Assembly (NCBI GenBank): GCA_963718065.1 | Contig: CAVQYE010000019.1 | Coordinates: 185,513 to 217,512, forward strand | Reading direction: 5' to 3' | From: an uncultured Actinomycetes bacterium | Lineage (GTDB): Bacteria > Actinomycetota > Thermoleophilia > Gaiellales > Gaiellaceae | Length of the DNA: 32,000 nt | Shown here: positions 1,407 through 23,138 of the stretch, one piece after another | Layout of the letters: each line of letters opens with the position of its first letter | How positions within the stretch are numbered: position 1 is the first letter of the stretch | Notes under the pieces: generated by a model | Seen by the model: the letters and a program-made list of their open reading frames with translations, nothing else | Database searches by the model: none | What the model was told of the DNA's origin: nothing | Position numbers and translations under genes: made by a program

Positions 1407-1742
1407 TCAGCCGAGCGTCAGCTGCTCGCCCTCGCGGAGCCCCTGCCCCGCTCCCTCAGCGAGCTCGATCACGGCCTTCGCGCCACGCTTGGAGGCGAAC
1501 CGCCACGGCCGGACCGTCTGGACACCGACCACGCGCAGCTCCCGGTCGACAAAGACCGCGTCGATCGCGAACCGCATGAAGAGCATGTGGATCGATCCGG
1601 CCGGCTTGAGGAAGATGCCCTCGTCCGGATCGAGCGAGGCTCGGCCGAGCAGTCCCCGCATCCGCGAGAACGGGTTTGAAGCGACCGCGCAACGAGCGCA
1701 CAGCACGGTTCCGTCCTCGCGAGTCACTGCCGCCGTCTTCAT
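1407..1742 (-). CDS. DUF192-family small protein
   Basis: Lies in ORF 1407..1892(-). The likely true start is ATG at 1742 (MKTAAVTREDGTVLCARCAVASNPFSRMRGLLGR...GIFLKPAGSIHMLFMRFAIDAVFVD...VIELAEG), which matches the DUF192 pattern as I remember it. It is divergent from the flp operon. Confidence 0.7.
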   Translation of the reverse strand: MKTAAVTREDGTVLCARCAVASNPFSRMRGLLGRASLDPDEGIFLKPAGSIHMLFMRFAIDAVFVDRELRVVGVQTVRPWRFASKRGAKAVIELAEGAGQGLREGEQLTLG

Positions 1743-2005
1743 GGCGCTAAACCTAGCCCAGTCACTCGATCGAGTGAATCGGCGCGCACCGGCGCAAGAA
1801 TCGCCCACCTGGGGGTTCTTAGACCTCGCAACTCGCCCGACAGTTGGGTCAAGCAAACGAGCAGGCGGCGCGGCACGCCGAGGGAGGTTCACCCTTCGTG
1901 ACCAGCGCTACCACTCGTCCCACCACCCCTATCAGCAATTGGTCGACCGGCACGTCTGACGCAGCCGTGTCCGACCTCCCCGTGCATCGAAGGGAGGTGA
2001 ATCGC

Positions 2006-2167
2006 ATGCAGAAGTTCATCGCTCGCTTCCAGCGCGAGGAGGGCCAGACGATGGCGGAGTACGGCGTCGTGTTGGCCGTCATTACCGTCGCCGTGGTCGG
2101 CGTTCTGATGCTCCTTTCCGGCTCGATCCAGGCCGCAATCCAGGGCGTCATCGACGCTATCTCGTAA
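2006..2167 (+). CDS. flp: Flp-family type IVb prepilin
   Basis: ATG at 2006 lies 5 nt after GGGAGGTGA. The 53-aa product is MQKFIARFQREEGQTMAEYGVVLAVITVAVVGVLMLL..., with the Flp processing motif G/xxxxEY followed by a hydrophobic helix. The ORF-track start at 1844 is too far upstream. Confidence 0.85.
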   Translation: MQKFIARFQREEGQTMAEYGVVLAVITVAVVGVLMLLSGSIQAAIQGVIDAIS

Positions 2168-2295: not shown

Positions 2296-2691
2296 ATGAA
2301 ACTTTTCCGCATCAAGCACAGCTCAGAGCGAGGCCAGGCCATGGTCGAGTTCGTCCTGGTCCTCCCCGCCCTGCTCCTGATCCTGCTGGCGATCATGCAG
2401 CTCGGGATCGTCTTCAAGAACTACGTCACGCTGACGGACGCCGTCCGCGCCGGCGCACGCAAGGCCGCGGTCTCGCGTCGCGATCCCTGTCCGGTCTGCG
2501 TCGCCACGGCCGCCGTGAAGAAGTCCGGCGCCGGGCTCGGCACCAGCCTCGTGGTCAACGTCACGCCCTCACCCTGGACAGCAGGATCCGACGTCACCGT
2601 CTCTGCCACCTACAACTACGAAGTCGATCTACTCGGCCTCGTCCTGCACAGCGGGAAGATGACGAGCTCGACGACGGAGCGGGTCGAATAA
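2296..2691 (+). CDS. tadE: TadE-like pseudopilin
   Basis: 131 aa. The N-terminus MKLFRIKHSSERGQAMVEFVLVLPALLLILLAIMQLG carries the TadE/TadG-type motif (G-x-x-x-VEF plus a hydrophobic helix). It sits between flp and cpaB. Confidence 0.8.
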   Translation: MKLFRIKHSSERGQAMVEFVLVLPALLLILLAIMQLGIVFKNYVTLTDAVRAGARKAAVSRRDPCPVCVATAAVKKSGAGLGTSLVVNVTPSPWTAGSDVTVSATYNYEVDLLGLVLHSGKMTSSTTERVE

Positions 2692-2770: not shown

Positions 2771-3547
2771 ATGACCTACCGCGCCAGAAACATCCTCGTC
2801 GCCGTGGCGCTCTCGCTCGTTGCCGCGCTGCTGACGACCTTCTATGTGACCAACTACAAGCGGAACGTCCAGACCGGCGAGGACAACGTGAAGGTCTTCG
2901 TCGCCGCCAAGGACGTACCGGCCGGTACCTCCGGCTCCGAGCTCGTGAGCAAGAACCTCCTCACGTCGGAAAGCGTCGCCAAGCGCACGGTGGTCCCGGG
3001 CGCGATCTCCAGTCCCGACCAGGTCCAGCGCCTCGTCCTCAACGAGCCGCTGTACGCCGGCGAGCAGGTCACCGCCCGCCGCTTCGGCAGCGTCCAGCAG
3101 CAGGGCATCCAGGCCAAGCTGAAGGGGACGCTCCGCGCCTACCAGCTCCCCGGAGACACGAACCAGCTGCTCGCAGGGACGCTCAACGATGGCGACCACG
3201 TCGACGTCGTCGTGACGATCCGGCCCGATCCCACGAAGGAGGACCGCGTAACCCGCATCGTGCTCCGGGACCTCGAGGTCCTGCGCGCACCGGTCTCCCC
3301 CGAGGTCTCGGGCAGGCTGTCCAACACGTCATCCGGCCAGGCCAACGTCCAGCTCGCCGTTCGCGATACGCAGGTGCAGAAGCTCCAGCAGGCGACGGCA
3401 GCCGGCGCACAGTCCGACTGGTCGCTCCAGCTCCGCCCGGTCGTCGATCCGGCAGACAGCCCGGAGACGCTCGAGTCGAACGACACCCTGATCAAGGACG
3501 GGCTCCGCGCGTCCGAGCTCAAGAACCTCCCGAGGAGTGGAAGATGA
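2771..3547 (+). CDS. cpaB: CpaB/RcpC-family Flp pilus assembly protein (N-terminal TM plus SAF-like domain)
   Basis: 258 aa and intact. It has a TM helix (ILVAVALSLVAALLTTFYV) and then VKVFVAAKDVPAGTSGSELVSKNLLTSESVAKRTVVPGAISSPDQV...LNEPLYAGEQVTARRFG, typical of CpaB. Its stop overlaps the next start as ATGA at 3544. Confidence 0.85.
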   Translation: MTYRARNILVAVALSLVAALLTTFYVTNYKRNVQTGEDNVKVFVAAKDVPAGTSGSELVSKNLLTSESVAKRTVVPGAISSPDQVQRLVLNEPLYAGEQVTARRFGSVQQQGIQAKLKGTLRAYQLPGDTNQLLAGTLNDGDHVDVVVTIRPDPTKEDRVTRIVLRDLEVLRAPVSPEVSGRLSNTSSGQANVQLAVRDTQVQKLQQATAAGAQSDWSLQLRPVVDPADSPETLESNDTLIKDGLRASELKNLPRSGR

Positions 3548-4753
3548 GCACCGACAATCAGACCAACGACCCGGGTCACGAGCGCGTCCGCATCTTCGTG
3601 ACGGGTGACTGCGAAGGGCTCGCGTCACTGCGCGACTCCCTCGCCGCCCATCACGAGCTCGAGCTCGTCGGTACCTCGGAGCACGTCGCCCAGGCCACCG
3701 CCACGCTCGCCGGCGGGCATCTCGACTGCGTCCTCCACGCGACGCGCATCGAGCTCGCTTCCCGCCGGCGAGATCGCGGCGATCCGCGAGCAGACGCGCG
3801 CGCCGATCTTCGTGATCGCCTCGGGCGAGTCCTCCGCGCTGCTCGAGGAGGCGCTCGAGGCCGACGTCACCGACGTCCTGCTCCTGCCGCAGCTGACGGA
3901 GAACGTCGTCTTCGCGATCCGCAAGGCCGCCAACGCGAAGCGGCGGTCCACGTGGCCAGCGGCGCGGCGCAAGCACGACGGGCGCATCGTCACCGTCTTC
4001 TCGCCGAAGGGCGGGACGGGCAAGACCGTGATCGCGACGAACCTCGCCGCCGCGTTCGCCAAGTACGAGCAGAAGCGCACGCTGCTGCTCGACCTCGACC
4101 TGCAGTTCGGCGACGCCGCGATCATGCTCGGCCTCGAGCCGGACAAGACGATCTACGACCTCGTCGTCGCTCCGGGCGAGCTCGACGCCGAGAAGCTCGC
4201 CGGCTACATCACCCGGCACCCGTGCGGGCTCGACGTCCTCCCCGCGCCGCTCCGCCCGGAGGACGCAGAGCTCGTCACGGAAGGCAAGCTCGCGCGCCTG
4301 CTCGAGGTCGCCCGCGAGCGCCTACGACGTGATCGTCGTCGACACCTCGCCGTTCTTCCACGGCCCGATGCTGGCGACGCTCGACCGCACCGACGAGCTG
4401 CTGATGGTCTGCGGGCTCGACGTGCCGACGCTGAAGAACGTCCGGCTCAGCCTGCAGACGCTCGAGCTGCTCTCGTTCCCGTCGAAGCGGATCCGCTTCG
4501 TCCTGAACCGCGCCAACTCGAAGGTCGGCCTGAAGAAGAGCGAGGTCGAGGCGGCGCTCGAAGGTGAAGATCGAGTTCGAGGTGCCGAGCGACCGGACGG
4601 TGCCGCTGTCGGTCAACCGCGGCAACCCGGCCGTCCTCTCCGACCCGGGTGCGACTTCTCGAAGGCGATCCGCGAGCTCGCCAAGAGCGCTGCAACCCGA
4701 CCGAGGACAAGCAGAAGCAGCGCAGGCGCGTCCTCTCGCTTGCGAAGGCCTGA
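3544..4753 (+). pseudogene. cpaE: CpaE/TadZ-type pilus-assembly ATPase (REC-like N-domain plus MinD/ParA-like domain), readable only across about 5 frame changes
   Basis: Pieces in successive frames are MSTDNQ...RIFVTGDCEGL...LDCVLHAT, then PAGEIAAIREQTRAPIFVIASGE...GRIVTVFSPKGGTGKTVIATNLAAAF...LLEVARER, then YDVIVVDTSPFFHGPMLATL...[23 protein letters not shown], then [28 protein letters not shown], then [12 protein letters not shown], then [18 protein letters not shown]. The junctions lie near 3750, 4320, 4560, 4648 and 4695. TGA at 4751-4753 sits 2 nt before the cpaF ATG. Confidence 0.8.
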
Positions 4754-4755
4754 CG

Positions 4756-6202
4756 ATGGGCCTCCACGACCGCCTCTCCAAGCAAACGGCGCCGACTCAG
4801 AACGGCACCGCGCTCAGCTCGCGCCGACGCAGGCGCAAGCAGGACACGGACGTCGAGGTTCGCCGGGCGGCCGATCCGTACGCGCGAGCTGAAGACGCCG
4901 GATCCACCACGCCGTGCATCGCCAAGCTCGGCCCGGAGCTCTTCAAGAGGGAGCCCGCCGAGGACCTGATGGAGCGCGTGCTCCGCGGTCGTCACCGAGC
5001 AGCTCGCGCTCGACCGGACGCCGCTGACCCGCGACGAGCGGCGGCGGATCGTCCGCGAGATCACCGACGACATCCTCGGCTACGGGCCGCTCGAGCCGCT
5101 CCTCGCGACGACTCCGTCACCGAGGTCATGGTCAACGCCTACGACCAGGTCTACGTCGAGCGCGCCGGCAAGATCGAGCAGACGGACGTCCGCTTCGTCG
5201 ACGACGCCCACCTGCTGCGGATCATCGACAAGATCGTCTCGCAGGTCGGCCGCCGCATCGACGAGTCGTCGCCGATGGTCGACGCCCGCCTCCCGGACGG
5301 CAGCCGCGTCAACGCGATCATCCCGCCGCTCGCGCTGCGCGGGCCGACGCTGACGATCCGGAAGTTCTCGCGCGACCCGTACACGATGGACGACCTGATC
5401 GCGTTCGGCTCGCTCACGGCGAAGGCCGCGCAGTTCCTCGCCGCCTGCGTCAGGGGCAAGCTGAACATCCTCATCTCCGGCGGTACCGGCACCGGCAAGA
5501 CGACGATGCTGAACGCGATGTCGGCGTTCGTCCCGGACGACGAGCGCATCGTCACGATCGAGGACGCGGCCGAGCTCCAGCTCCAGCAGGAGCACGTGAT
5601 CACGCTCGAGTCGCGCCCGCCGAACATCGAGGGCCAGGGCGAGGTGCGGATCCGCGAGCTCGTCCGGAACGCCCTGCGCATGCGCCCCGACCGGATCATC
5701 GTCGGCGAGGTCCGCGGCGCGGAGACGCTGGACATGCTCCAGGCGATGAACACCGGCCACGAGGGCTCGCTGACGACGATCCACGCGAACTCGCCGCGCG
5801 ACGCGCTCGCCCGGCTCGAGACGCTCGTGCTGACCGCCGGCGTCGAGCTGCCGCTTCGCGCGATCCGCGAGCAGATCGCCTCGCGCGTTCGACCTGCTCG
5901 TCCAGATCTCGCGCCTCGTCGACGGCTCGCGCCGCGTCACGCACATCACCGAGGTGCTCGGCATGGAGTCCGACGTGATCACGCTGCAGGACATCTTCGT
6001 CGCGAAGCCGCCGGACGAGGAGCAGGCGCCGACGTCGCGCGGCACCCGCCTGCTCGCGCCGCTCGCCTGCACCGGCCTCAAGCCGCACTTCCTCGAGAAG
6101 ATGGCGACGAACGGCGTCGTCCTGCCGCCGACGTTCTTCCGGCGGACGAGCCGAGCAGCCGCCCGACGTTCGCCGCAGCCGGCTTCGGCAGGCTACGAGT
6201 GA
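4756..6202 (+). pseudogene. cpaF: CpaF/TadA secretion ATPase, readable only across about 6 frame changes
   Basis: It carries Walker A (GGTGTGKTT), [12 protein letters not shown] and the His box [13 protein letters not shown]. Frame changes lie at 4885, 4898, 4914 (all +1), about 4987 (+1), about 5105 (-1) and 5884-5887 (+1). Bridging them restores [72 protein letters not shown] and [43 protein letters not shown]. The gene ends in the frame of ORF 5954..6202. Confidence 0.85.
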
Positions 6203-8129
6203 GGCGCGTGCTCGCTCTGCAACCGGCGGCGCTGCTCGCGCTCGCCGCGGTCGCCGCCGCGGCGGGCCGCCGCGGCGGCGGCGCGGAGTCCATCTGCGCC
6301 GTCGACACGACCGGCTATCCCGACGTCCGCGTCTCCGGTCGTCACGCGTCCGCCGTCGTCGACCACCGCCCGCGCTCACCGAGAACGGCCGGCCGGTGTC
6401 GCGGCGCTCGAGACGCAGAACCTCGGCCGCGCGAAGAGCGTCGTGCTCGCGATCGACCGTTCGCAGTCGATGACGGGCCAGCCGATCGCGCGACGCGATC
6501 GCCGCCGCGCGGGCGTTCGTCGCCGGCGAAGGCCGACGGCCGATCGGGTCGCGATCGTCGCCTTCGGCCACACGCGCCGTCGCGCTGACCGGCTTCTCGG
6601 CCTCGACCATCGACGCCGACACCGCGCTGCGCTCCGGCCGTCGACGTCGACGCGACAGCCGGCACCGCGCTCTACGACGCCGTCGATCCTCGCCGCCCGC
6701 AGCTCTGCGCGCCGAGCCGCTGCCGGGCCGGGTCGCTGATCGTCGCTCACCGACGGGCACGACGTCTCGAGCAACGCCACGCTCGAGGACGCCGATCGCG
6801 ACGCGCGCGCGCAGCACGGCGTCGCCGTCTACCCCGTCGGCGATCGAGGCGCCCAGCTTCGACGCCGCGCCGCTCCAGCGTCTCGCCGCGTCGACCGGCG
6901 GCACGCTACCACGCGGCACGCTCGACGAGCGCGCCTCGCCGGCGATCTACGCCGCGCATCGCGGACGAGCTCGCACGCACCTGGCGCGTCGCGTACCTGA
7001 CCGCCGCCCGCCCGGGCGACGCTCTGCGGCTCCGGCACGCGTGCCCGGCACCGGCTCCGCGGCTGCATCCGTCGCGCTGCCCGCGCGGTCGCAACTCGGC
7101 GCGGCGCCGGCTGCCGAGCCGTCGCGCCTGCTTCCGGCTGCGCTCTACGACGGCGCCGGCACGTTCGTGCTCGGACTCGCGGTCGCGCTCCTCGATCCTG
7201 CTCGCGTACTGCGTTCGCTCCTCGCCGCGCGGGAGGGCCGCGGCTCACGCGCCGCCTGGCGCCGCACCTCGCAGGGATCGCGAAGGCGCGAAGCGCAAGC
7301 GCCAGGCGCGACGAGCGGCTCGCCGGCTTGCCGCAACATCCTCGAGGCGACCGAGCAGCCTTCGGCGCACCTGAAGCAGTGGCACGCGGTCCAGCGCCTG
7401 CTCGAGCGCGCCGACCTGCCGCTGAAGACGGTCGAGCTCCTCTACATCGCCGTCGGCGTCGGGCTTCGTCTCGGCATCCTCGTCGCCGTGCTGGCGTCGC
7501 CGCCGCTGATCGTGCTCGTCGCGCTTCTTCGTCGGCGGCTCGCTCCCGTTCCTCTTCGCGACCTTCAAGGCGACGCGCCGGCTGACGCCGTTCGAGAACC
7601 AGCTGCCCGACCTGCTGATCACGATCGCCGCGTCGCTCAAGGCGGGCCACAGCTTCCGCCAGGGCATCCAGACCGTCGTCGACGAAGGCCCGCACGCCGG
7701 CGGCGAAGGAGTTCAAGCGCGTGCTCACCGAGACGCGCCTCGGCCGTCCGATGGACGACGCGCTCGAGCGACATGGCCGACGCGCGTCGGCTCGAAGAAC
7801 CTCGACGTTCGTCGTCACCGCCGTCACGATCCAGCGCCAGGTCGGCGGCTCGCTCGCCGGGCTCTTCGACATGGTCGCCGAGGCCGTCCGCCAGCGGCAG
7901 CAGTTCGCCCGCAAGATCAAGGGCCTGACCGCGATGGGCCGCATGTCCGCCTACGTGCTCGTCGGCCTGCCGTTCTTCATCGCGCTCGCGCTGACGCTCA
8001 TGAACCGCGAGTACATGGCGCCGCTCTACCACACCTCGACCGGCCACAAGCTGATCATCGGTCGGCGCTCGTGATGATGGCGCTTCGGCAGCGTCCTCCT
8101 CAAGCAAGATCGTCTCCTTCAGGGGGTGA
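6199..8129 (+). pseudogene. tadB: Fusion of an N-terminal vWA domain (MIDAS DxSxS) with a TadB-type (T2SS-F family) platform protein; extremely fragmented (my hand count is about 30-40 frame changes)
   Basis: GTG at 6199 overlaps the cpaF stop (GTGA). vWA fragments are scattered over three frames: [139 protein letters not shown] and IADELARTWRVAYLTAARPGDALRL. TadB fragments are HLKQWHAVQRLLERADLPLKTVELLYIAVGVGL, FFVGGSLPFLFATFKATRRLTPFENQLPDLLITIAASLKAGHSFRQGIQTVVDEGP, AAKEFKRVLTETRLGRPMDDALE, RVGSKNLD and FVVTAVTIQRQVGGSLAGLFDMVAEAVRQRQQFARKIKGLTAMGRMSAYVLVGLPFFIALALTLMNREYMAPLYHTSTGHKLII. The likely stop is TGA at 8127-8129. Confidence 0.75.
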
Positions 8130-9054
8130 ACCCGATGCTGCTCGTACTCGCCGTCCGCCTGTCTCGCCGCCGCCGCCTATCTTCGCTCGGCGAGGTCGTC
8201 ACGTCACCCGCGCGGGAGCGCCAGCGCGTCGGTCCGGCGCGCGCGCCGACTACGGCCGCGTGCGCCTGCCGGAGCGCCGGCCGAGCGGCGCGCGCTTCCA
8301 CGAGCGCGTCATCGTGCCCGCTGGCCGGCTCGCTCGCCGCGATCGTCCTCCGCCTCAACCCGACGCACGACCATCGAGGCGATCGCAGCGAGGCTGCTCG
8401 CAGCCGGCCTCCGCAGCGTCACGCCGACGACGTTCCTGGCCGCGAAGGGCGGGCTGCGGCGGCTCGGGCCTCGTGCTCGGCCTGCATCGCCGGCGGCTCG
8501 AAGGGCCCCGGCGACGGGCTCCTCGTTCGCCGCTGCTCTTCGGCAGCGCTCGGGTTCATCGCGCCCGGACGTGCTGCTCACCTCGAAGCGCGCACGCGCC
8601 GGCGCGACGCGATCCGCGAGCCAGCTGCCGGACGCGCTCGACCTGCTCGCCGTCTCGGTCGAGGCCGGCCTCGGCTTCGACGGCGCGGTCGACGAAGCTG
8701 ACCGAGCACATGGACGGCGCCGCTCGTCGAGGAGTTCGCGCTGACGCTCGGCGAGATGCGGATCGGCGAGTCCGGCAGGACGCGCTCAAGAAGCTCGCCG
8801 AGCGCGTCGCACGCGCCGAGGTCGCCGCGTTCGTCCGCGCGATCATCCAGGCCGACCAGCTCGGCATCTCGCTCGGCCGGATCCTGCGCGTGCAGGCCGC
8901 CGACACGCGGCTGCCGCCGCCAGGCGGCCGCCGAGGAGACGGGCGATGAAGGCGCCGATCAAGATGCTCTTCCCGACGGTGCTCTTCATCTTCCCGGCGA
9001 TGTTCCTCGTCATCCTCGGCCCGGCGTTGATCAACCTCGCGCAAGGTCTTCTGA
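8126..9054 (+). pseudogene. tadC: TadC-type (T2SS-F family) platform protein, fragmented (about 15-20 frame changes by hand count)
   Basis: GTG at 8126 (or ATG at 8135) overlaps the tadB stop. Fragments in three frames are MLLVLAV, ACLAAAAYLR, ADYGRVRLPERRPSGARFHERVIVP, LAGSLAAIVLRLNP, TIEAIAARLLAAGLRSVTPTTFLAAKGGL, SQLPDALDLLAVSVEAGLGFDGAV, LTEHMDG, DALKKLAERVARAEVAAFVRAIIQADQLGISLGRILRVQAADTR, RRQAAEE and MKAPIKMLFPTVLFIFPAMFLVILGPALINL. The 3' end is uncertain. A TGA at 9052-9054 (frame 1) overlaps the next ATG as TGATG. Confidence 0.7.
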
Positions 9055-10780
9055 TGTCGGCTGAGACCGAAAAGGGCTTCGGCACCGGTCTTCGCGCGCA
9101 GCTCGAAGCGGCGCGAGGCGGAACGAGCCGCAGGAGTCGAGGAGCGCCGCCGTCGAGGCGGAGGAGCCGCCGCCGCAACCGCCCCGCCGCTCGCCGCACG
9201 GTCTTCGACGACCTGGACATGCTCCGCGCCGAGCTGAAGGCGTCGCTTTCGCGTGAGGAGGAGCTGCGCAACGCTCTCTCCCGGCAGGTCGAGATCTACA
9301 AGCGGGAGCTCGAGGCTGCCGGCGACACGTCGCGCATGGCGTCCGAGGTCGCCCAGAAGGAGGCGCAGCTGGAGGCAGCCGAGGAGGCGATCGCCGCGCG
9401 CGAGCGCCAGCTGGCCGAGCAGCAGGAGGCCTCGAAGACGCGCTGCGCGAGCTGCAGGCCCGCGAGCGCGAGATCGAGACGTCGTAGCGGCGGCTCGACA
9501 CGGCGCAGCAGCAGCTCGGCGAGGCCCGCCGCGAGCTCGAGGACCGCCAGCGCGAGCTCGGCGACCTCCAGGCCCGGGCGACCGCGGTCGAGGCGCGTGC
9601 CGCCGAGCGCGAGGCGCAGGTCGAGGCCAAGCTCGAGACGCTCACCTCCGCCGACGGCGAGCGCGAGCTCGCGGCCGCCGAGGTCGCCTCACAGCTGCAG
9701 GCGATCGGCGATCAGGAGCGCCAGGTCGCCGCCCGCGAGGAGGAGCTCGCCCGTCTCCGGAGCGAGCTCGACGCCGAGTCCGAGCGCAAGCGCCGCGAGC
9801 TGGAGGACATGCTCGCCGAGCGCCAGCGCGAGATGGCCGCGCGCGACGCGGCAGCCACCGAGCGCGAGGTCGCTGCTGAACGAGCGCGACACGCCTCGCG
9901 CGGGAGCGCGAGTCGTCATTCACCACGCGCGAGCGTGAGCTCGAGGAGCGGTTCCGGGCCGTCGCAGCGATCCAGACAGACTTTGCGAAGCAGCACAGGC
10001 CGAGGTCGAGGCGCGAGCGCAGGAGCTGACCAAGCTCGAGACCGAAGCTCGACGCACGCAAGCTGGCACTGACCCAGGGCGAGGCCGGCATGGCCGCCTG
10101 GGAAGGCCGCCTGCGCGCCAACCAGGACCGGCTCGAGCGCGAGCGCGCGGGCCACGGCCAGACCTCGCAGGAGGCGTTCGCGCTTCTCTCCGAGCTCGAG
10201 CAGCGCGAGGCTGAGCTCAACCGGCGCGAGCAGGAGCTGCTCGTCGCGCCCGAGGCCGGCGGCGCGCGTGGCGCCGAGCTCGACTCCCGCGAGGCCCTGC
10301 TGGCCGCGCGCGAGGCAGAGCTCAACCGCCGCGAGGCGTCGATCGTCCGCGACGACGAGCGCACGGCGTCGGTGCGTCGCCCGCGAGCGCGAGCTGAACG
10401 CCCGCGAGGCCGAGGTGACGAGCGCCGAGAAGCTGTTCGACTCCCAGAAGACGAGGCTCGAGCGGCTGGAGAAGCGCCTGCAGCGCACCGAGGACGCGAT
10501 CGCCGAGCAGATCAAGGAGCTGGAGCGCCGCGAGGAGGAGATGACGCGGCACGAGGCTCGCCAGGAGGCCGATCAGGAGCTCCGCGACGAGAAGCTCGAG
10601 AAGCGCGAGCGCCATGTCGCCGAGCGCGAGCAGCGCCTCGGCCGCCGCCAGGAAGACCTCGCGGCCTACGTCGGCGAGCTGCAGGACAAGCTGGACGACC
10701 GCGAGACCGAATGGTGGCGCAAGCAGCTCGGAGCAGACCCGGTCGAGTCCGAGCCCGAGCCGACGAAGCTCGCCGGCTGA
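9054..10780 (+). pseudogene. Large (~570 aa) Glu/Arg/Ala/Leu-rich coiled-coil protein at the distal end of the Tad operon; about 8-10 frame changes plus one in-frame TAG (9485-9487)
   Basis: ATG at 9054 begins MSAETEKGFG.... Long heptad-like segments include FDDLDMLRAELKASLSREEELRNALSRQVEIYKRELEAAGD, EDALRELQAREREIETS*RRLDTAQQQLGEARRELEDRQRELGDLQARATAVEARAAEREAQVEAKLETL...AAREEELARLRSELDAESERKRRELEDMLAERQREMAARDAAATEREV, RERESSFTTRERELEERFRAVAAIQTDFAKQ and KLALTQGEAGMAAWEGRLRANQDRLERERAGHGQTSQEAFALLSELEQREAELNRREQELL. The last ~400 nt are uninterrupted (ARERELNAREAEVTSAEKLFDSQKTRLERLEKRLQRTEDAIAEQIKELERREEEM...KQLGADPVESEPEPTKLAG*). The junctions I could place lie near 9117, 9183, 9432, 9871, 9893, 9995, 10044 and 10375. 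Confidence 0.6.
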
Positions 10781-10821
10781 GCGAAATCCACCGAAACGCT
10801 GCCGCTACACTGTCCGTCCGC

Positions 10822-10904
10822 GCGGATGTGGCGGAATTGGTAGACGCGCACGGTTCAGGTCCGTGTGGGGGCAACCCGTGGAGGTTCAAGTCCTCTCATC
10901 CGCA
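10822..10904 (+). tRNA. tRNA-Leu (anticodon CAG), type II with a long variable arm; CCA not encoded
   Basis: The cloverleaf was folded by hand. The acceptor GCGGATG pairs with CATCCGC. The D-arm is GCG-GAATTGGTAGA-CGC. The anticodon stem CACGG/CCGTG encloses the loop TTCAGGT, giving anticodon CAG. The variable arm is TGGGGGCAACCCGT and the T-arm is GGAGG-TTCAAGT-CCTCT. The discriminator is A at 10904. Confidence 0.9.
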
Positions 10905-10987
10905 TAGCCGTTTTTGAGCGGGAACCGGGAACACTCCGGGAACAAACGGATGAGTGGCGGCGCTCTGCCGCCCGGCCGCGATTTCTG

Positions 10988-11368
10988 TCAGGGCTTCCGG
11001 GCTCGGATGGCCGTGTTCGCCGCTCGCCGATCTCCACGAGATCGTAGGGGCTTGGATGGTCCACATGGTCGTACTCGGCTGTGTATTCGAGTGGCAGCCG
11101 GTAGATGGATTCCTGCGCCATCCGCACGTTGAATTGCAGCGACTGCACTACAGACACTGAGTCGTCGAGCCCGGCTTCGTCGAGGACGGCGCGGACTTCC
11201 TTCTCGAAGGCTCGACGACTCCGATTCGCGAGCTACGACGCCGGCAGTGCGAGTTTCAATCTCGTTGGTCAGCGCGGTGATCTCTTGCAGTTTGGCGTTG
11301 CGTTCGGCTTCGTACCCGTCGGCGAGGTCGGTCAGTTGGTCAACTGGACCGCGCGATATCGTCAGCAT
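10988..11368 (-). pseudogene. Orphan hypothetical gene with a frame change near 11205-11225; 3' end uncertain
   Basis: ORF 10988..11368(-) begins MLTISRGPVDQLTDLADGYEAERNAKLQEITALTNEIETRTAGVVA with unbiased composition and then turns Arg-rich. The sensible continuation AFEKEVRAVLDEAGLDDSVSVVQSLQFNVRMAQESIYRLPLEYTAEYDHVDHPSPYDLVEIGE lies in the frame of ORF 10855..11157(-), which then runs nonsensically into the tRNA. Confidence 0.35.
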
Positions 11369-11750
11369 GTCGTTGGGCTAGCAGTGCAGTCTGGCTGCTC
11401 ACCGGGAAGAAGATCCAAAGCCGTCCAATACGTCGGCGTGTATCAAGAAGGGTGTTGCGCACATCTCCGGCCTCGCGCCGCAGGCCTTCGTAGTCGAAGC
11501 CAAGCTCGGAGGGCCGGTACTTCGAGAACAACGCTTCGGCGGCGGTAATGCAGGCACTGAGTCCCTCTTCGGCGAAAGTGATGGCTTCTGTCATCTTGTC
11601 GCGACGCTTCTCTTTGCGTTCGTAGCTCGTGGTGACCACTGCGGCAGAAGCCGCACCCGCAAGGAGACCGAAGACACCAGTCGTAACCGCGACGGCGATC
11701 GCCGCCCAGGCTGGCAATTCCGTTGCGGCGACGATTCCGGTCACTCCCAT
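11340..11750 (-). CDS. Hypothetical membrane-anchored protein (136 aa)
   Basis: It has an N-terminal TM segment (LPAWAAIAVAVTTGVFGLLAGAASAAVV) followed by a soluble part of mixed composition (KMTEAITFAEEGLSACITAAEALFSKYRPSELGFDYEGLRREAGDVRNTLL). I recognise no family. It may be continuous with the next gene. Confidence 0.45.
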   Translation of the reverse strand: MGVTGIVAATELPAWAAIAVAVTTGVFGLLAGAASAAVVTTSYERKEKRRDKMTEAITFAEEGLSACITAAEALFSKYRPSELGFDYEGLRREAGDVRNTLLDTRRRIGRLWIFFPVSSQTALLAQRHADDIARSS

Positions 11751-11809
11751 GGAGAACGGTTACTTACTCCGCGTTTGTGCAGAAGGCAAGTATCGGTCTC
11801 GACCACGCT

Positions 11810-12109
11810 TCAGTATCTGGCTGCCCGGGCGTCGTAGCGATCGAACGCCGCGCGCAGATGGTCGTCTGTCCGCTTGAGCCAGCGCGCATACGTGTCTTCG
11901 AGCTGTGTCACGGACGCGCCCATGATCGTCGCCAAGTGCCATAGGTGGACACCATCCTCGATCGCAAAGCTATGCCGCATGTCCACGATGCGTCGATGGT
12001 CGATCCCCGCGGCCCGGAGCGCGGGCGTCCACACACGGTGCCGGACCTTCTCGGCGTCGATGTAGCCTCCGCGCGCGGCAGGGAACAGGATCGGCGTGTC
12101 GAGTGTCAT
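11810..12109 (-). pseudogene. C-terminal fragment of a tyrosine recombinase / phage-type integrase (N-terminal ~2/3 missing)
   Basis: The 99-aa product is TPILFPAARGGYIDAEKVRHRVWTPALRAAGIDHRRIVDMRHSFAIEDGVHLWHLATIMGASVTQLEDTYARW. It has the catalytic-domain box II pattern (H-x-x-R-H ... H/G-x-x-x-x-T-x-x-x-Y). The core-binding domain and the first catalytic Arg region are absent. Confidence 0.7.
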
Positions 12110-12220
12110 GGTGAGCCCTTCGCTGTCCCTGGTCTAGACCAGCACGTGTACGTTTCGCAAGGGTCTGGCGCCGGCCCCGATGGTCGCTAGCGACGACGAG
12201 GAGCCCTGCCATGGTGCCTG

Positions 12221-12708
12221 TTAGGGCTGTGTGGGCGTCACCGTCTCACCGAGCGCCGACCTTGGGGTGTCACTCCAGTCGAACGTTGCTGCGGCCGGCG
12301 GTGGAGCAGCGGAACCGGCTTGTGCGATTGCGCTCGCCTGCAGGCTGGTTGCCGAGGAGGCGTCCTTGAGGGCCGTCGGCGGCTTGGTCCCCGTCGACCT
12401 CAGTGAGACAAGACTGGTCAGAAGACCGAACCAGAACGGCGCGCCGAGCATCACCATGAGTCCGGTCAGGATCCAACCCCGAGCATGCCCCATTGGGCCG
12501 ATGTCCAGTTGAGCGGGGATCGGTTCTTGTTCCACGCATCCTTGGATGCGTTGTCCCAACCGACGGGGAGACTGAGCTCTTTCAGGCTGTCGGTCGTCGC
12601 GGCGACGCTTGTCAGATCCTTGGGCTCGCCGCTATCGGCGACGCCGGACGCGGCTGTCGCGACCGCTTGGCGCGTGAATGGCGATCGTTCCCGCCGCAGC
12701 CGCTCCAA
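12221..12708 (-). pseudogene. Orphan membrane protein with a frame change near 12480
   Basis: ORF 12466..12708(-) ends ...LSLPVGWDNASKDAWNKNRSPLNWTSAQWGMLGVGS*. The TM helix continues in ORF 12221..12559(-) as GWILTGLMVMLGAPFWFGLLTSLVSLRSTG.... The junction is in a G-run (ctcggggttgg). Confidence 0.4.
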
Positions 12709-12782
12709 GCCTGCTACGGCTCACTCTCCACGGCTGCGGCGGAGACAACCTCTACTCGGTCAAACACGACGGGCGAGGACGG

Positions 12783-13214
12783 CTACTTGCGCAGGACCTT
12801 GCAGAAATAGCCTTTCGAGTAGTAGTTCGATCTACCGCTCCCGTCGGTGAAGTGATTGAACGTCTCCACCCTCAGCGAGCCACTGTCGAGGACGCCTGTG
12901 ACGATCGCGACCTTGAAGGCGAACTTGTACTGGGCACTGAAAGCGACAGCTGCGCTTGAGCTGACGTCGGCGGCATAGGCGAGCCCCGGCACCTTCCCCC
13001 AGTCGCATGGCGTGGGGGTGCAGGCGCCGAACGCCTGCACGGTGATCGAGGAGCCTGAGGCAGCGATCACGATCTTCACCAGGTTCCGGGTGGCACCATC
13101 GCAAGCGTTCCAGGTGCCGACCAACGCGGCCTGTCCCACGACCGCGGCAGCCTTCGCTTCGGCTGCTTTCTGGGCCAGGTCTGACGGTGCTTTGAATTCA
13201 TGCTTCGCGGGCAT
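12783..13214 (-). CDS. Hypothetical 143-aa protein, apparently beta-rich, with 4 Cys; intact
   Basis: ATG at 13214 is preceded by AGGGAGTGAGAA. The product is MPAKHEFKAPSDLAQKAAEAKAAAVVGQAALVGTWNACDGATRNLVKIVIAASGSSITVQAFGACTPTPCDWGKVPGLAYA...GSLRVETFNHFTDGSGRSNYYSKGYFCKVLRK. Its composition is unbiased, unlike the spurious ORFs around it. Confidence 0.6.
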   Translation of the reverse strand: MPAKHEFKAPSDLAQKAAEAKAAAVVGQAALVGTWNACDGATRNLVKIVIAASGSSITVQAFGACTPTPCDWGKVPGLAYAADVSSSAAVAFSAQYKFAFKVAIVTGVLDSGSLRVETFNHFTDGSGRSNYYSKGYFCKVLRK

Positions 13215-13510
13215 TTCTCACTCCCTAATCGGCTGTTCCGCTCCGGAATCCGTTCTCGGTTTCCGGAACCTTCGAGCTCACGAAGATCAGAATCACCCTC
13301 CTCTCCCAGCGGCGTGGCCGGTAGCCGACGCACGTTGTGGTGGGCCGCGAAAGAGCTTGCGCTTGTGGCAGCACAAGCATGGCTTCGACGGCCGCGCACG
13401 CCCGTTCCGAGCAGAAGCGGGGCTGACCCAACGTGCGGCAGCGACCTCGCATCCGACATAGAAGTCTCTTGGACTTGGACTAGAGCTAGCCGCTTACTAA
13501 GCGCAATACC

Positions 13511-13539
13511 AAGCTATGTCCGCGGACACCAACAGTCAA
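13511..13539 (-). promoter_or_regulatory. Candidate sigma-70/SigA-type promoter (-35 TTGACT, 17-nt spacer, -10 TAGCTT), with the palindrome CGCTTA-C-TAAGCG (13491-13503) just downstream
   Basis: The minus strand reads caagaCTTGACTgttggtgtccgcggacaTAGCTTggtattgCGCTTAgTAAGCGgc. It points toward the 143-aa gene about 290 nt away. This is a motif match only. Confidence 0.25.
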
Positions 13540-13578
13540 GTCTTGCTTTGCCGAATGGCGACAGCGTGTTGTCGCTCC

Positions 13579-13594
13579 ATGAGAGGACTTGAAC
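13579..13594 (-). repeat. 16-nt inverted copy of the tRNA-Leu segment 10884-10899 (GTTCAAGTCCTCTCAT)
   Basis: The plus strand at 13579-13594 is atgagaggacttgaac, the exact reverse complement of tRNA positions 10884-10899. The flanking bases do not complete a tRNA: there is no matching 5' T-stem and the acceptor differs. Confidence 0.6.
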
Positions 13595-13874
13595 GCCTGT
13601 CCTGACAGCTGAGGTCACCGCGGGGCGTATCTCGAGCCTCGTCTTTGTGGTCGGTGCACAGGGAGAGTGAACTCGGGTACGTCGGGGTGCGCATAGCCGT
13701 TTTCTGGCGATGGAACGGACGAGACGTGTGTCCCTGCGCGCACCGTAGTTCGCCGACGCGGCCAAGGCGGACACCGAGGTCACGCTCGCGAACTAGCGCT
13801 AACGGACAACCGGCACCGGCCGGGGAGCCTGTCCCTCCCCGACCCGTGCGGGCCTCGCTCGGCGTGAGCGCCGC

Positions 13875-14993
13875 CTACGAGGCGGTCCAGTAGATGTCCT
13901 CGGTCCAGCAGTGCGGGCCGCCGTAGACCCCCGTGTAGTCGACGACGCGCACGGTCCCGCTCGCGCTCCCGGGGGCAGTGAGCTTTCCCGCGACGGACAG
14001 GGTGAGCACCATGTTGGACCCGACGGTGCTCTTGCTGTTGATCACGAACCTTCCTTCCGGATCGACGGGAATCGTGCCCTCGACCCAGACCTTGGCGTCG
14101 CGAATGAACGAGAGCGGGGTATCGCAGGTCAGGTCGACGAAGAAGTACAAGCCCCACAGAGCCGTGGCACCCGAGCCGACCTCGAAAGCGATGTACTTCC
14201 ATTGGGCGGTCGACCCCGAGTAGGGGCCGTCGCGCGCCGCGACATCGTCGTTCTTGATCGTGCCCGTCGCGGTCCCGTCGGCGATGGAGGCGTTGACCGG
14301 GCTGGACAGCGTGACCGTCAGGGTTTCGTCGGGCTCGACCGCTTTGTCACTGGCGACCGCGACCGTGACGGCGGTCGTCGTTTGCCCCGGCTTGAAGGTG
14401 ACTACGCCGCCCGCAGCCGTGTAGTCGCTCGCGGCGACGGCGGTTCCGTCGGAGATCGCGTAGTGCGCCGCGACGCTGAGCGGTGTCGCCGCCGAGAGGC
14501 TGACGGCGAAGCTCAGGGTCGAGCTTCCCTCGCTTCCCTCCACCACCGAGGCGTCGGCAACGGAGATCGACGGCTTCGGGAGCGCGCGAATCTGGAGGCT
14601 AGCGATCCTCGTGGCGGTCGAACCGGCGGACTGGATCGTCACCTTCACCCGGAGCACCTTTCCGTTCGCCGCCACGGGGACGACGAACGAGACGCGCGCG
14701 AGTCCTTGCTTGAACGACTCGGCGTGGGCGATGACCTTCCCTGCATAGGACGGCTCGCAGATCATCCTGCCGCGGGTCAGGGGCGCGCCGCTGTCGCTCC
14801 GCGTTACCCTGAAGATGACGGTCAAGCGCTTTCCGGGCGACGCCTGGGAAGGAACAGCGACAGGTCGCCCGATCACGGGCTTCGGCCCGGTCGACGCGCT
14901 GCCGGCGCTCGCGGCCGAAGCGCCCGCGGCGAGGACGCAGATGATCAAGCCCAGCAGACCGGCGTGCATCGGTGCTCGCCAGATCGAGAACAT
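13875..14993 (-). CDS. Secreted protein with a Calx-beta domain
   Basis: The likely start is ATG at 14993, with GGGAGGG just upstream. The signal-like N-terminus is MFSIWRAPMHAGLLGLIICVLAAGASAASA. The central region SVADASVVEGSEGSSTLSFAVSLSAATPLSVAAHYAISDGTAVAASDYTAAGGVVTFKPGQTTTAVTVAVASDKAVEPDETLTVTLSSPVNASIADGTATGTIKNDD is a textbook Calx-beta pattern. I do not recognise the flanking domains. Confidence 0.75.
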   Translation of the reverse strand: MFSIWRAPMHAGLLGLIICVLAAGASAASAGSASTGPKPVIGRPVAVPSQASPGKRLTVIFRVTRSDSGAPLTRGRMICEPSYAGKVIAHAESFKQGLARVSFVVPVAANGKVLRVKVTIQSAGSTATRIASLQIRALPKPSISVADASVVEGSEGSSTLSFAVSLSAATPLSVAAHYAISDGTAVAASDYTAAGGVVTFKPGQTTTAVTVAVASDKAVEPDETLTVTLSSPVNASIADGTATGTIKNDDVAARDGPYSGSTAQWKYIAFEVGSGATALWGLYFFVDLTCDTPLSFIRDAKVWVEGTIPVDPEGRFVINSKSTVGSNMVLTLSVAGKLTAPGSASGTVRVVDYTGVYGGPHCWTEDIYWTAS

Positions 14994-16044: not shown

Positions 16045-17167
<1,123 letters not shown>

Positions 17168-17181
<14 letters not shown>

Positions 17182-17636
17182 CGCGTTGCTCCGCGACGTG
17201 CCCGTGTTCCGCGGCCTGGCGGACGACCAGCTGACGCTGATTGCCGGCTGCGGCTCGAATGTCCACTTCGAAGAGGACACCGTCCTCTTCCGCGAAGGCG
17301 ACCAGGCGGACGCCTTCTATCTTGTCCGGCAAGGTGCGGTCGCGCTCGAGACCTTCGCGCCCGTGCCGGGGAGCGATGACGATCGAGACGCTCGAGGCCG
17401 GTGAGGTCGTCGGCTGGTCGTGGCTCTTCCCGCCCTACCGCTGGCACTTCGACGCGCGGGCGCTGACGCCGATACGCGCGACGATGTTCGACGGCGCGTG
17501 CCTGCGCGGAAAGTGCGAGACGGACACGGCGCTGGGCTACGAGCTGATGTCCCGCTTCGCACAGATCCTGATCGAACGGCTGCAGTGGACGCGCCTCCGG
17601 CTCCTCGACGTCTATGGCGATGGCCGTTCACGCTGA
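17168..17636 (+). pseudogene. Cyclic-nucleotide-binding (Crp/CAP effector-type) domain protein embedded in the hydrogenase operon; single frame change near 17366-17374
   Basis: The first half, [68 protein letters not shown], lies in ORF 17150..17404. The second half of the same beta-barrel, [71 protein letters not shown], lies in ORF 17241..17636. The gene overlaps both neighbours. Confidence 0.75.
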
Positions 17637-20496: not shown

Positions 20497-20960
20497 GCCG
20501 TGTCGTCGTGATCGGCATCGGCAATGTCTATCGCGGTGACGACGCGGTCGGGCTCGCGGTGGCCGAGCGGCTGCGCGCGCGCGAGCCGAGCGGTGTCACC
20601 GTTCTCGACTGCGAGCAGGAGCCGACGCGGCTGCTCGACGCGTGGGAAGGCGCCGACGTCGCGCTCGTCGTCGATGCCGCCGCCTCCGGCGCGGTCGAGG
20701 CCGGGACGGTGCACCGGTTCGACACGAGCGAGGGTCGCATTCCCGCCCGCGTGTTCCGCTCGTCGACACACGCGTTCGGCGTCGGCGACGCCGTCGAGCT
20801 CGCCCGCGCACTCGGGCGGCTGCCGGGGCGAGTCGTCGTCTACGGCGTCGAGGGCGCGGACTTCACCACCGGCGCAGCGCTGAGCGCGCCGGTCGAGGCG
20901 GCCGTCGAGGGCCTCGTCGACCGGCTGGAGGAGGAGAGCCGATGCACGAACGGGCGTTGA
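20493..20960 (+). CDS. Hydrogenase maturation endopeptidase (HycI/HoxW family)
   Basis: GTG at 20493 overlaps the hyhL stop (GTGA). The product is [27 protein letters not shown]...[20 protein letters not shown]...[34 protein letters not shown], with the conserved GxGNxxxxDDGxG and H-x-x-G motifs. Confidence 0.8.
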
Positions 20961-21438: not shown

Positions 21439-22385
21439 CCACGTTCGCCGCCTCGCTGACAGCCCGCCTCTCGAGCCGCGCGATCGGCGTCTGCTTCGCC
21501 TTCGTCGCGGCGATCGTCAGCGGTGTCTCGGTCTACGTGAACTCGAAGGGCGTCTCGCACTTCGACGACGCGACCGTCTACACGACCGCGAAGAACGCCG
21601 TCGCCGGCGCGCTGCTCGTCGTGCTCGCGATCCCCGTCATCACCGCGGCGGCGCGCCCGGGCTCGCGCGCGCCGCGGCCGCAGGGCCGGCGGCAGTGGCT
21701 CGGCCTCGTTGCCATCGCGTGCATCGGCGGCAGCATCCCGTTCGTGCTCTTCTTCGAGGGCCTCTCCCGCGCGACCGCGACCCAGGCCGCCTTCCTGCAG
21801 AAGACGCTCGTCATCTGGGTGGCGCTGCTCGCGGTGCCGCTGCTCCGGGAGCGAATCCGGCCGGTGCATCTCGCCACGATCGCGCTCGTCGTGGCCGGGC
21901 AAGCCTGGATTGCCGGCGATGTCGGCACGGTCACCTTCGGCAGCGGCGAGGCGATGATCTTCGCCGCGACGATCCTCTGGGCGGTCGAGGTGATTCTCGT
22001 CAAGCGGCTCGTCGTCGGCATCGACCCGCGGACGCTCGCCGCGTCGCGGATGGCGCTCGGTGTGGTCGTGCTCGGCGCTTGGATCGCCGTCTCGGGCCGC
22101 GCTTCCGAGCTCGCCGGCCTCAGCGCGGCGCAATGGCAGTGGGCGACGCTGACCGGCCTGCTCCTGACCGGCTATGTCGCCACGTGGTACGCGGCGCTCG
22201 CCTTCGCCCCGGCGATCGACGTCACCGCTGTGCTCGTCTTCGGCGCCGTCATCACGGCCGTGCTGGCCGGGACGATCGACGGTGCGGCGGTCAGCGTCGC
22301 CGGAATCGCTCTGATCACGGCGGGTGTCGCGCTCGTCGGAGTCGGCGCCCTGAGGAGAAGCACCGCGCAGGCCGCACGATCGTGA
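21435..22385 (+). CDS. EamA/DMT-superfamily transporter (10-TM type)
   Basis: ATG at 21435 overlaps the hypC stop (ATGA) and is preceded by AAAGGAG. The 316-aa hydrophobic protein has two EamA-like halves (...IACIGGSIPFVLFFEGLSRATATQAAFLQKTLVIWVALLAVPLLRERI... / ...TGLLLTGYVATWYAALAFAPAIDVTAVLVFGAVITAVLA...). Confidence 0.8.
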   Translation: MTTFAASLTARLSSRAIGVCFAFVAAIVSGVSVYVNSKGVSHFDDATVYTTAKNAVAGALLVVLAIPVITAAARPGSRAPRPQGRRQWLGLVAIACIGGSIPFVLFFEGLSRATATQAAFLQKTLVIWVALLAVPLLRERIRPVHLATIALVVAGQAWIAGDVGTVTFGSGEAMIFAATILWAVEVILVKRLVVGIDPRTLAASRMALGVVVLGAWIAVSGRASELAGLSAAQWQWATLTGLLLTGYVATWYAALAFAPAIDVTAVLVFGAVITAVLAGTIDGAAVSVAGIALITAGVALVGVGALRRSTAQAARS

Positions 22386-23138
22386 CGGCCGGCCCGCTCC
22401 TGTTCGCACGCTACGCCTATCCGCCGAACGCACTCGGGCTGCTGCGGCGCCGACGAGACGAGGACGTTGCTCGAGTACGGCGCGGCGGGCGCGTCCGACG
22501 GAGGCCTGTCGGAGCTGGCGCGCACCTTCGAGGGAGCATGGCCCTACCTGACGCTGATCGCCGACTCGAACCGGATCGCTGACCCGCTCGACCCACGCGT
22601 CGTCGAGGCGTACTGGGTCGGCAACGACCTCCTCGACCAGGTCACGGCGGGCACGCTCTCGCGTCACGTCGAGGACCGGTTCCGCGGCCGGATCGGGCAG
22701 AGCTGGCGGCGTGTGGTCGACGCCGTCGCCGCCGGAGCCGTGCCGCACCACACCTTCCACGTCCTGGCCGTCTACCCCTGGCTCGGCCTGCTCCGGACGG
22801 GGGTCGTCGACGAGCCGCTGCACGTGCTCGACCAGTGCCGGACGACGCCGGCTCTGGTGCAGTCGGTCGACGGCGACAGCGCGCGCGTGCGCCTGCGCCC
22901 GCTCGTCTGGGACGGCCGCGCACTCGAGCTCGGGCCGCGGACGTCGCGCGACGTGCGCTGGCGCGACGACGGGCTCGCGCTCGTCGCGGCACCGGAGCCG
23001 GGCGAGTGGGTGTCGCTCCACTGGGACTTCGTCTGCGACCGGCTGACACGGTCGTCGGCGGCCCGGCTTGCCTTCGAGACGCGCAGGACGCTCGCCGCGG
23101 TCAACAGCTCGTCGACGGCGGCCGCTGCGCTCGCGTAG
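22382..23138 (+). pseudogene. Conserved hydrogenase-cluster accessory protein (from memory resembles the actinobacterial DUF6390-type family); frame change near 22435-22445
   Basis: GTG at 22382 overlaps the EamA stop (GTGA) and gives VTAGPLLFARYAYPPNALG. The sequence then continues in the frame of ORF 22467..23138 as CGADETRTLLEYGAAGASDGGLSELARTFEGAWPYLTLIADSNRIADPLDPRVVEAYWVGNDLLD...WVSLHWDFVCDRL.... Confidence 0.5.

Follow-up and report, generated by a model that had tools for sequence, protein, structure and literature searches.

Has the Tad/Flp pilus machinery been lost from a locus whose genes can be read only by hopping between frames, or is the sequence of the locus itself at fault? 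The locus lies in the window, as we call the whole stretch of 32,000 nucleotides of DNA analysed here, in which an earlier note, made by hand, had described a block of frame disruptions at 3740-10380 and read it as a locally unpolished or low-coverage patch. Every sequence-level test that we ran supported that reading, and we put the probability at about 0.9 that the block is a patch of low-quality consensus within an assembly of long reads and not a real biological feature.

Genes of the operon

The genes were followed through the window by frameshift-aware protein-to-DNA dynamic programming, with proteins from locus L081, the closest relative, as queries and with L004 for the N-terminus of cpaF. 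All five genes to the left of the block gave 0 events and are intact. Two of them are on the reverse strand, namely an ortholog of a 480-aa protein of L081 (3..1250; 59% identity), for which the Pfam search matched no family, and a DUF192 gene (1410..1760; PF02643; 77% identity to L081). The other three, like all further features described here, are on the forward strand: a Flp-type pilin gene (2006..2167; 79% identity to L081), a tadE-like pseudopilin gene (2296..2691; PF07811, TadE) and rcpC/cpaB (2771..3547; PF16976, RcpC; GC3 0.91), the last without frameshifts against both L081 and L004. Matches of the pilin to Flp_Fap and DUF4244 were weak and under the Pfam cut-offs (Flp_Fap 23.6 bits, cut-off 32.2).

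The stop codon of rcpC/cpaB overlaps the start codon of cpaE/tadZ (ATGA at 3544), which encodes a ParA/MinD-like ATPase (3544..4752; 84% identity to L081) and in which about seven disruptions were placed, the first at 3748 and the others at 3945, 3958, 4319, 4560, 4652 and 4696; once its frame is corrected, the protein matches AAA_31, CbiA and ParA in Pfam. About eight disruptions were found in the secretion ATPase gene cpaF/tadA (4754..6202; 89% identity to L081), at 4885, 4898, 4914 and 4987 in the N-terminus, by comparison with L004, and at 5106, 5884, 6141 and 6190, by comparison with L081. The core of this gene, 5107-5883, has zero events and encodes GGTGTGKT, as befits a Walker-motif secretion ATPase, and the frame-corrected CpaF matches T2SSE (PF00437) at 9.8e-70. 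The densest part of the block is a vWA-tadB fusion gene (6199..8129), with 31 disruptions from 6265 to 8105 and a corrected protein that matches VWA, VWA_2 and T2SSF; the same fusion is one intact ORF in L002, L003, L004, L007, L008 and L081. It is followed by tadC (8135..9054), with 14 disruptions from 8153 to 8939 and a corrected protein that also matches T2SSF, PF00482 thus being present in both corrected platform proteins, TadB and TadC. The last gene, encoding a coiled-coil protein (9054..10780; 576 aa in L081), carries at least nine disruptions, the last at 10375, and a single in-frame stop at 9485-9487, which resembles a +1 and a -1 event separated by a few bases; its final 400 nt are free of events, and ORF 10268-10780 has a GC3 of 0.92. 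An intact tRNA-Leu(CAG) gene (10822..10904; Rfam RF00005, 53.9 bits; also found by ARAGORN) marks the right end of the operon. Among the start/stop overlaps that had been listed as intact, ATGA at 3544, GTGA at 6199 and TGATG at 9052 are present, while GTGA at 8126 turned out to be the stop of tadB only, tadC starting with ATG at 8135.

The gene order is flp, tadE, rcpC, cpaE, cpaF, vWA-tadB, tadC and the coiled-coil gene, and the components expected of a Tad/Flp system were found as a T2SSE ATPase, two T2SSF proteins, TadE, RcpC and an AAA_31/CbiA protein, the Flp match being weak. From flp to tadC, the window shares the gene order of the Tad/Flp (tight adherence) type IVc pilus operon in its actinobacterial form with a vWA-TadB fusion, and its Pfam domains and synteny agree with those of L081, L003, L004, L007 and L008. 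It deviates in the frame disruptions only, which we attribute to error and not to a biological difference.

Extent of the frame disruptions

Alignment to L081, and to L004 in the N-terminus of cpaF, gave at least 69 frame changes at 3748..10375 of the forward strand, a number to be read as a lower bound. Fifty-seven of these are +1/+2 and 12 are -1/-2 (83% +1/+2), all being of 1-2 nt, and they amount to about 10 per kb over the block, with a peak of about 17 per kb at 6.2-8.9 kb. The hopping is also visible in a plot of GC3 phase, which switches repeatedly within the block and is constant in intact genes such as that at 2771-3547, and in the output of a codon-usage Viterbi decoder allowing frameshifts, which needed more than 25 short segments of differing frame to cover 3.5-10.8 kb. 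Its limitation to about 3.75-10.4 kb is confirmed by these three independent lines, namely GC3 phase, Viterbi decoding and protein-to-DNA alignment.

The manual description in the earlier note was accurate in most respects. Its block was recovered with nearly the same limits, its tally of about 5 events in cpaE, 6 in cpaF, 30-40 in vWA-tadB, 15-20 in tadC and 8-10 in the coiled-coil gene compares with 7, about 8, 31, 14 and 9 in the alignment, and its density maximum at about 6.3-8.8 kb coincides with the aligned peak. All junctions placed by hand were found again (4319, about 4560, about 5106, 5884, 6337, 6572, 6633, 6745, 6839 and three within 8061-8105), and the frameshift-aware alignment with homologs that it had called for needed multiple frames per gene, not a single one. 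The block edges do fall inside genes, the left one within cpaE and the right one within the coiled-coil gene. Within the block, events become denser where local GC is higher (rho 0.47, p 7e-4) and toward the block centre; the local indel rate is about 1%, up to 1.7%, which is about 100 times that of the remainder of the window, and is confined to 6.6 kb.

Both flanks had been called clean, which is true of the left and only partly of the right. About 18 kb of coding sequence in the right flank contain two isolated +1 events only. One lies near 17372 in a cNMP-binding gene (17150..17636), where the PF00027 profile is split over two frames (positions 2-31 and 23-88) and the Viterbi decoder places a +1 at 17372, and the other near 22444 in a DUF6390 gene (22385..23138), where the Pfam match begins at profile position 36, the N-terminal 'FARYAYPPNALG' is found in the adjacent frame and the decoder places a +1 at 22445. 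Moreover, 10.9-13.9 kb is without long ORFs, and the ORF at 17703-19211, previously taken as an intact one of 1.5 kb, is in one half an out-of-frame shadow, the true gene beginning near 18444. The right flank showed no synteny with any fetched locus. Two further candidates for frameshifts were rejected: the segment 10.8-13.9 kb is not homologous to the operon-adjacent gene of L081 (a 1042-aa cyclase), of which it might have been a frameshifted ortholog, and at about 21.2 kb, in place of a frameshifted hypA, a short intact HypA is followed by HypC in the next frame.

Selection on the frame-corrected proteins

Once frames are corrected, the proteins of the block are without evolutionary decay and have a fully selected look, in line with what had been concluded from the peptides between the events. 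Between the window and L081, dN/dS is 0.20-0.43 for the block genes and 0.18-0.45 for the flank genes, GC3 of the corrected block genes is 0.93-0.99, and all Pfam domains were recovered full length. Where the other relatives are invariant, 9 private amino-acid changes were counted in the window from cpaE to tadC, compared with 19 in its sister L081. The relaxed selection of a genuine pseudogene block was seen neither in dN/dS nor in GC3 nor in the private changes, and this lack of decay argues for an assembly or consensus error and not for a biological event.

Substitution errors are a separate matter. A patch of single-read quality should carry them too, and none was detectable in the block when private changes were compared with those of relatives, which counts against reading the block as such a patch.

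Spectrum and context of the insertions

DNA alignment of the block to L081 revealed 58 single-base insertions and no deletions of more than 5 nt. With 49 of the 58 being C or G, the suspected prevalence of +1 events with one extra C or G was borne out. The insertions are found outside any homopolymer in 81% of cases, the inserted base copies a neighbour in 19%, against 41% for simulated random insertions (p = 4e-4), and 36% of the insertions fall between the two bases of a GG or CC, compared with a null expectation of 20% (p = 0.005). A uniform random-insertion model is rejected by these context statistics. The four-base contexts at the events are diverse and have no motif in common.

Slippage is expected to duplicate the neighbouring base in close to 100% of cases, and because the inserted bases avoid homopolymers, replication slippage and mismatch-repair deficiency are excluded. 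The deletion bias, mixed sizes and concentration in homopolymers or repeats that mark a natural indel spectrum were not found. Nor does the block show the homopolymer association that is the classical signature of nanopore consensus; the position of the insertions outside homopolymers points to low-depth or polisher noise and speaks against systematic homopolymer error.

Comparison with related loci

The look at orthologous loci that had been proposed showed genes in a single frame and nearly event-free: with the same alignment method, L001, L002, L003, L004, L007 and L008 gave 0 events in nearly every gene, and L081 has one frame break, in the N-terminus of cpaF. Across 80 loci, cpaF carries at most two events, mostly at its variable termini. 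The loci from short-read MAGs (L002, L007 and L008) have 0 events in cpaE, cpaF, vWA-tadB and tadC, and loci from nanopore-only MAGs show, in a small sample, sporadic single-base frameshifts outside homopolymers, six in L005 and one in L001.

A same-species assembly was sought among genome contigs, in the protein database and among metagenome contigs, and no hit exceeded about 93% identity in CpaF or 80% in RcpC; exact-protein look-ups for two clean genes of the window gave no match in the contig index. The best identities were 91% in the genome-contig scan, 93% in the protein database and 80% in the metagenome-contig scan, cluster members being short fragments only. As the searched collections hold no assembly of the same species, an intact version of exactly this operon was not seen.

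Origin of the disruptions

If the block is a consensus patch, the locus beneath it would be an unremarkable and functional Tad/Flp pilus operon in a Gaiellaceae-like actinobacterium of high GC content, and the roughly 70 disruptions at 3748-10375 would be consensus errors in one assembly patch rather than mutations. Their likeliest cause would be a contig stretch built from long reads, probably those of a metagenome assembled from nanopore data alone (we infer the platform), the consensus of the stretch being backed by very few or mis-recruited reads, presumably through low depth or mixed strains, so that spurious and context-dependent single-base C/G insertions may have survived polishing. 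What we observed, indels dominating the noise while the encoded protein is otherwise unaltered, is as expected of an error patch. Errors of this type recur sparsely in other parts of the contig and in nanopore MAGs and are absent from short-read loci, the sample compared being small.

Nanopore consensus indels have been described as giving rise to frameshifted gene calls, bins below about 40x coverage needing polishing, and in its classical form nanopore consensus error consists of indels in homopolymers, which are often deletions (PMC9262707). The MFD-LR catalogue, the source of most close relatives, is nanopore-only and was assembled with Flye and one Medaka round (PMC12313526). Like the residual indels of nanopore-only MAGs (Sereika et al. 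2022, PMC9262707; MFD-LR, PMC12313526), the disruptions of the window are indel-dominated and break ORFs with residues unchanged; their rate is likewise far above that in short-read MAGs of the same family, and sister nanopore MAGs show sporadic events of this kind. The published signature is homopolymer-associated, whereas that of the window is insertion-dominated and 81% non-homopolymer, and the window differs also by an extreme local rate limited to 6.6 kb. That the events are non-homopolymer insertions, unlike classical nanopore error, is a point against the patch reading.

A particular form of artefact, possible though rather doubtful, is one in which mixed populations or a repeat confused the consensus, reads from related co-occurring Gaiellaceae or from a second copy of the operon having been recruited in polishing and having given rise to spurious insertions, or the region having gone unpolished through ambiguous mapping of its reads. 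A conserved Tad operon is widespread among Gaiellaceae that co-occur in soil, and frameshifts tend to be fewer in the most conserved segments, with none in the cpaF core at 5107-5883, but this trend is weak (Spearman -0.26, p = 0.07) and confounded with GC. Insertions often make C/G alternations beside third codon positions, at which differences between related strains would be expected, yet no significant enrichment was found, as 42 of 54 events adjoin a third position with 67% expected; the retention of both alleles at polymorphic third codon positions, tried as a source of the insertions, was rejected on the same count. Judged by the letters alone, such an artefact would look the same as simple low depth.

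That the pilus machinery was genuinely pseudogenised very recently, in a localised and insertion-biased mutational process that brought about 70 small insertions into 6.6 kb, is very unlikely. The sequence undeniably contains the frame disruptions, the genes on the pilin side (flp, tadE and rcpC) are intact, and genuine pseudogene clusters of reductive evolution, such as those of recently host-restricted pathogens, also have multiple frameshifts in adjacent genes of one system. However, 70 indels with no rise in dN/dS, no loss of GC3 and no private changes to match would need an indel-only process, and we know of no mutational process of this sort. In the decay of bacterial pseudogenes, deletions prevail and indel sizes vary broadly; here, all indels are of 1-2 nt and insertions exceed deletions by about 5 to 1, the opposite of that bias, and the avoidance of homopolymers leaves neither polymerase slippage nor mismatch-repair deficiency as a source. 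In contrast to genuine clusters, the window has no relaxed selection, no substitution-derived stops, no deletions of more than 5 nt and no deletion bias, and its disruptions begin and end inside genes, the block edges ignoring gene boundaries. Unrelated genes and further long-read MAGs also show single events of the same type.

Were the sequence correct as written, it would describe a soil Gaiellaceae population whose Tad machinery was inactivated purely through non-homopolymer insertions of single C or G bases, about 70 in all, which we regard as highly improbable. The insertions would then have come too fast for accompanying substitutions, and either an unknown, locally targeted process that generates insertions or a mechanism for tolerating them would have to be at work. 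Recoding, by which programmed ribosomal frameshifting, quadruplet decoding or transcriptional slippage would keep the operon functional as written, fits the perfectly conserved proteins between events but appears effectively refuted by the absence of site conservation in relatives, in all of which each gene is single-frame, the roughly 70 sites having no shared motif, slippery heptamers or homopolymer tracts and including both +1 and -1 events.

Implications

With a consensus patch as the preferred reading, the signature described here, non-homopolymer C/G insertions that split GG or CC at a local rate of about 1%, would be missed by homopolymer-focused quality checks and is relevant to the polishing and filtering of high-GC long-read MAGs. 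Gene callers would turn the locus into dozens of junk ORFs and miss CpaE, CpaF, TadB and TadC, and such calls would add spurious proteins to databases and falsely imply the loss of the pilus in an organism whose Tad pilus operon is almost certainly normal.

The Tad operon and its relatives

At a GC content of about 70%, the window is most closely related to MAGs of uncultured Gaiellaceae and Thermoleophilia. Most close relatives were drawn from the MFD-LR catalogue, which is nanopore-only and was built with Flye and a single Medaka round (PMC12313526). The closest relative, L081, is a 321-kb ENA contig reached via a CpaF protein with 93% identity, and the left part of the window matches it gene for gene: both carry, on the minus strand, genes for a 480-aa protein and a DUF192 protein, and share the gene order flp, tadE, rcpC, cpaE, cpaF, vWA-tadB fusion, tadC, and a gene for a 576-aa coiled-coil protein. 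All of these genes occur as single ORFs in L081 and in the relative loci L002, L003, L004, L007, and L008, with the sole exception of L081 cpaF, whose N-terminus has a frame break of its own at 9720-10000 of that locus, observed only as a broken reading frame. In the collections searched, no independent assembly of this species turned up for direct comparison.

Frame changes in the operon

In the window, three methods agreed on repeated frame hopping at about 3.75-10.4 kb. A GC3 phase plot, steady in clean genes, switches phase many times inside this block, and a Viterbi decoder based on codon usage, with +1 and -1 moves allowed, yields more than 25 separate fragments over 3.5-10.8 kb. Using a purpose-written local protein-to-DNA aligner in which frameshifts are explicit moves, and the L081 proteins as reference, we located 7 frame changes in cpaE, 4 in the C-terminal 384 aa of cpaF, 31 in vWA-tadB, 14 in tadC, and 9 in the coiled-coil gene; with L004 as reference, the cpaF N-terminus revealed 4 further +1 events. 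The block thus holds at least 69 frame changes between 3748 and 10375, 57 of them +1/+2 (extra bases) and 12 of them -1/-2, a lower bound since the only in-frame stop, at 9485-9487, has the look of a +1/-1 pair a few bases apart that the alignment did not separate. Event density amounts to about 10 per kb versus about 0.1 per kb in the remaining coding sequence; inside the block it increases toward the centre and is positively correlated with local GC (rho 0.47, p = 7e-4). The hand-placed junctions and per-gene tallies of the earlier note are closely matched by the aligner, and the operon start/stop junctions are as described there, apart from "GTGA 8126", which is just the tadB stop codon, tadC starting at 8135.

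The same aligner found no frameshifts in the five left-flank genes, and with the same reference proteins 0 events per gene in L002, L003, L004, L007, and L008, even at 50-60% identity; cpaE, cpaF, vWA-tadB, and tadC of the three short-read MAG loci (L002, L007, and L008) are free of them. Across 80 loci, cpaF never showed more than 2 events, mostly at variable termini. Two MFD-LR loci, L001 (1 event, at 13175) and L005 (6 events, at 8400-14000), display sporadic single-base frameshifts in the Tad operon, outside homopolymers.

Right flank

Viterbi transitions in the right flank fall on gene boundaries with two exceptions. In the cNMP-binding protein gene (17150-17636), an isolated +1 near 17372 divides the domain between two frames, and in the DUF6390 gene (22385-23138), an isolated +1 lies in the N-terminus near 22444, where the context "GGG C TGC" marks a C insertion outside a homopolymer that resembles the block insertions. 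The first sits in an otherwise intact [NiFe]-hydrogenase cluster (16045-21400) encoding a Fer4_22 protein, a NAD_binding_1/DHODB Fe-S protein, the small subunit (Oxidored_q6, with its true start at about 18444), the large subunit (19204-20496), HycI, an 87-aa HypA, short and without the zinc-finger region (20942-21205), and HypC. A 1.5-kb ORF at 17703-19211, previously listed as intact, proved to be composite, its 5' half being an out-of-frame shadow of the gene at 17614-18447 and its Oxidored_q6 domain starting at residue 264. Long ORFs by themselves are no evidence of intact genes in a genome of 70% GC.

Closer to the operon, a tRNA-Leu(CAG) gene (10822-10904) precedes a stretch of about 3 kb (to 13880) that is lower in GC (61-65%), has no long ORFs and gives a weak host-type codon signal. 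A minus-strand ORF at 11810-12109 looks like the C-terminus of a tyrosine recombinase ("RHSFA...Y"), but has no Pfam match at E <= 0.01. The region 10822-13880 is not syntenic with L081 and probably represents the degraded remains of an integrative element located at the tRNA.

Origin of the frame changes

The block is best explained by poor consensus within a local patch of a long-read assembly (probability about 0.9), and the earlier proposal of a locally unpolished or low-coverage patch is supported by indel spectrum, selection, and controls alike. Such a patch could stem from low depth, or from reads mis-recruited from related strains or a repeat. Nanopore consensus indels are known to yield frameshifted gene calls, and bins under about 40x coverage require polishing; the published errors, however, are homopolymer errors, while the block events are not (PMC9262707), and this mismatch is the chief detail that the patch explanation does not account for.

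DNA alignment to L081 resolved 58 insertions of a single base, which was C or G in 49. For a null, we removed the inferred insertions, put back random composition-matched bases, and repeated the same alignment pipeline in eight runs. The inserted base duplicates a neighbour in 19% of cases (null 41%, p 4e-4), separates the two bases of a GG or CC pair in 36% (null 20%, p 0.005), and forms CG or GC with the left-hand base in 64% (null 46%, p 0.008). Replication slippage and mismatch-repair failure are excluded by the first value, as either would lengthen base runs, and uniform random insertion is excluded by these context statistics. The pattern points to context-dependent basecalling or polishing error. 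Throughout 3748-10375, the inserted base never equals its 5' neighbour, stands within a pair of like bases in 36% of cases (GG to GCG, CC to CGC), and tends to produce C/G alternation; these contexts may represent a reproducible basecaller or polisher signature.

A genuine, indel-only inactivation of the pilus operon is very unlikely. Bacterial genomes are biased toward deletion, whereas insertions here outnumber deletions 5:1 and no larger deletion occurs. A true pseudogene with time for about 70 indels would be expected to hold hundreds of unconstrained substitutions, yet none of that kind are visible in the frame-corrected block genes. Their dN/dS versus L081 (0.20-0.43) lies in the same range as that of flanking genes (0.18-0.45), and their GC3 is 0.93-0.99. 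At sites invariant in the other relatives, private amino-acid changes from cpaE to tadC number 9 in the window and 19 in its sister L081, and the corrected proteins recover the domains AAA_31/CbiA, T2SSE, VWA+T2SSF, and T2SSF. Recoding of the frame changes is effectively excluded, since the event sites share no common motif and no relative carries them.

Once their frames are corrected, the block genes appear to be under full selection. In every close relative (L002-L004, L007, L008, and L081), as in the window (6199-8129), TadB carries an N-terminal fusion to a signal-peptide-plus-vWA domain (620-635 aa), and a coiled-coil protein of 475-576 aa without a Pfam match is always encoded 3' of tadC in close relatives. 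The vWA-TadB fusion and the long coiled-coil protein are conserved lineage-specific additions to the Tad operon.
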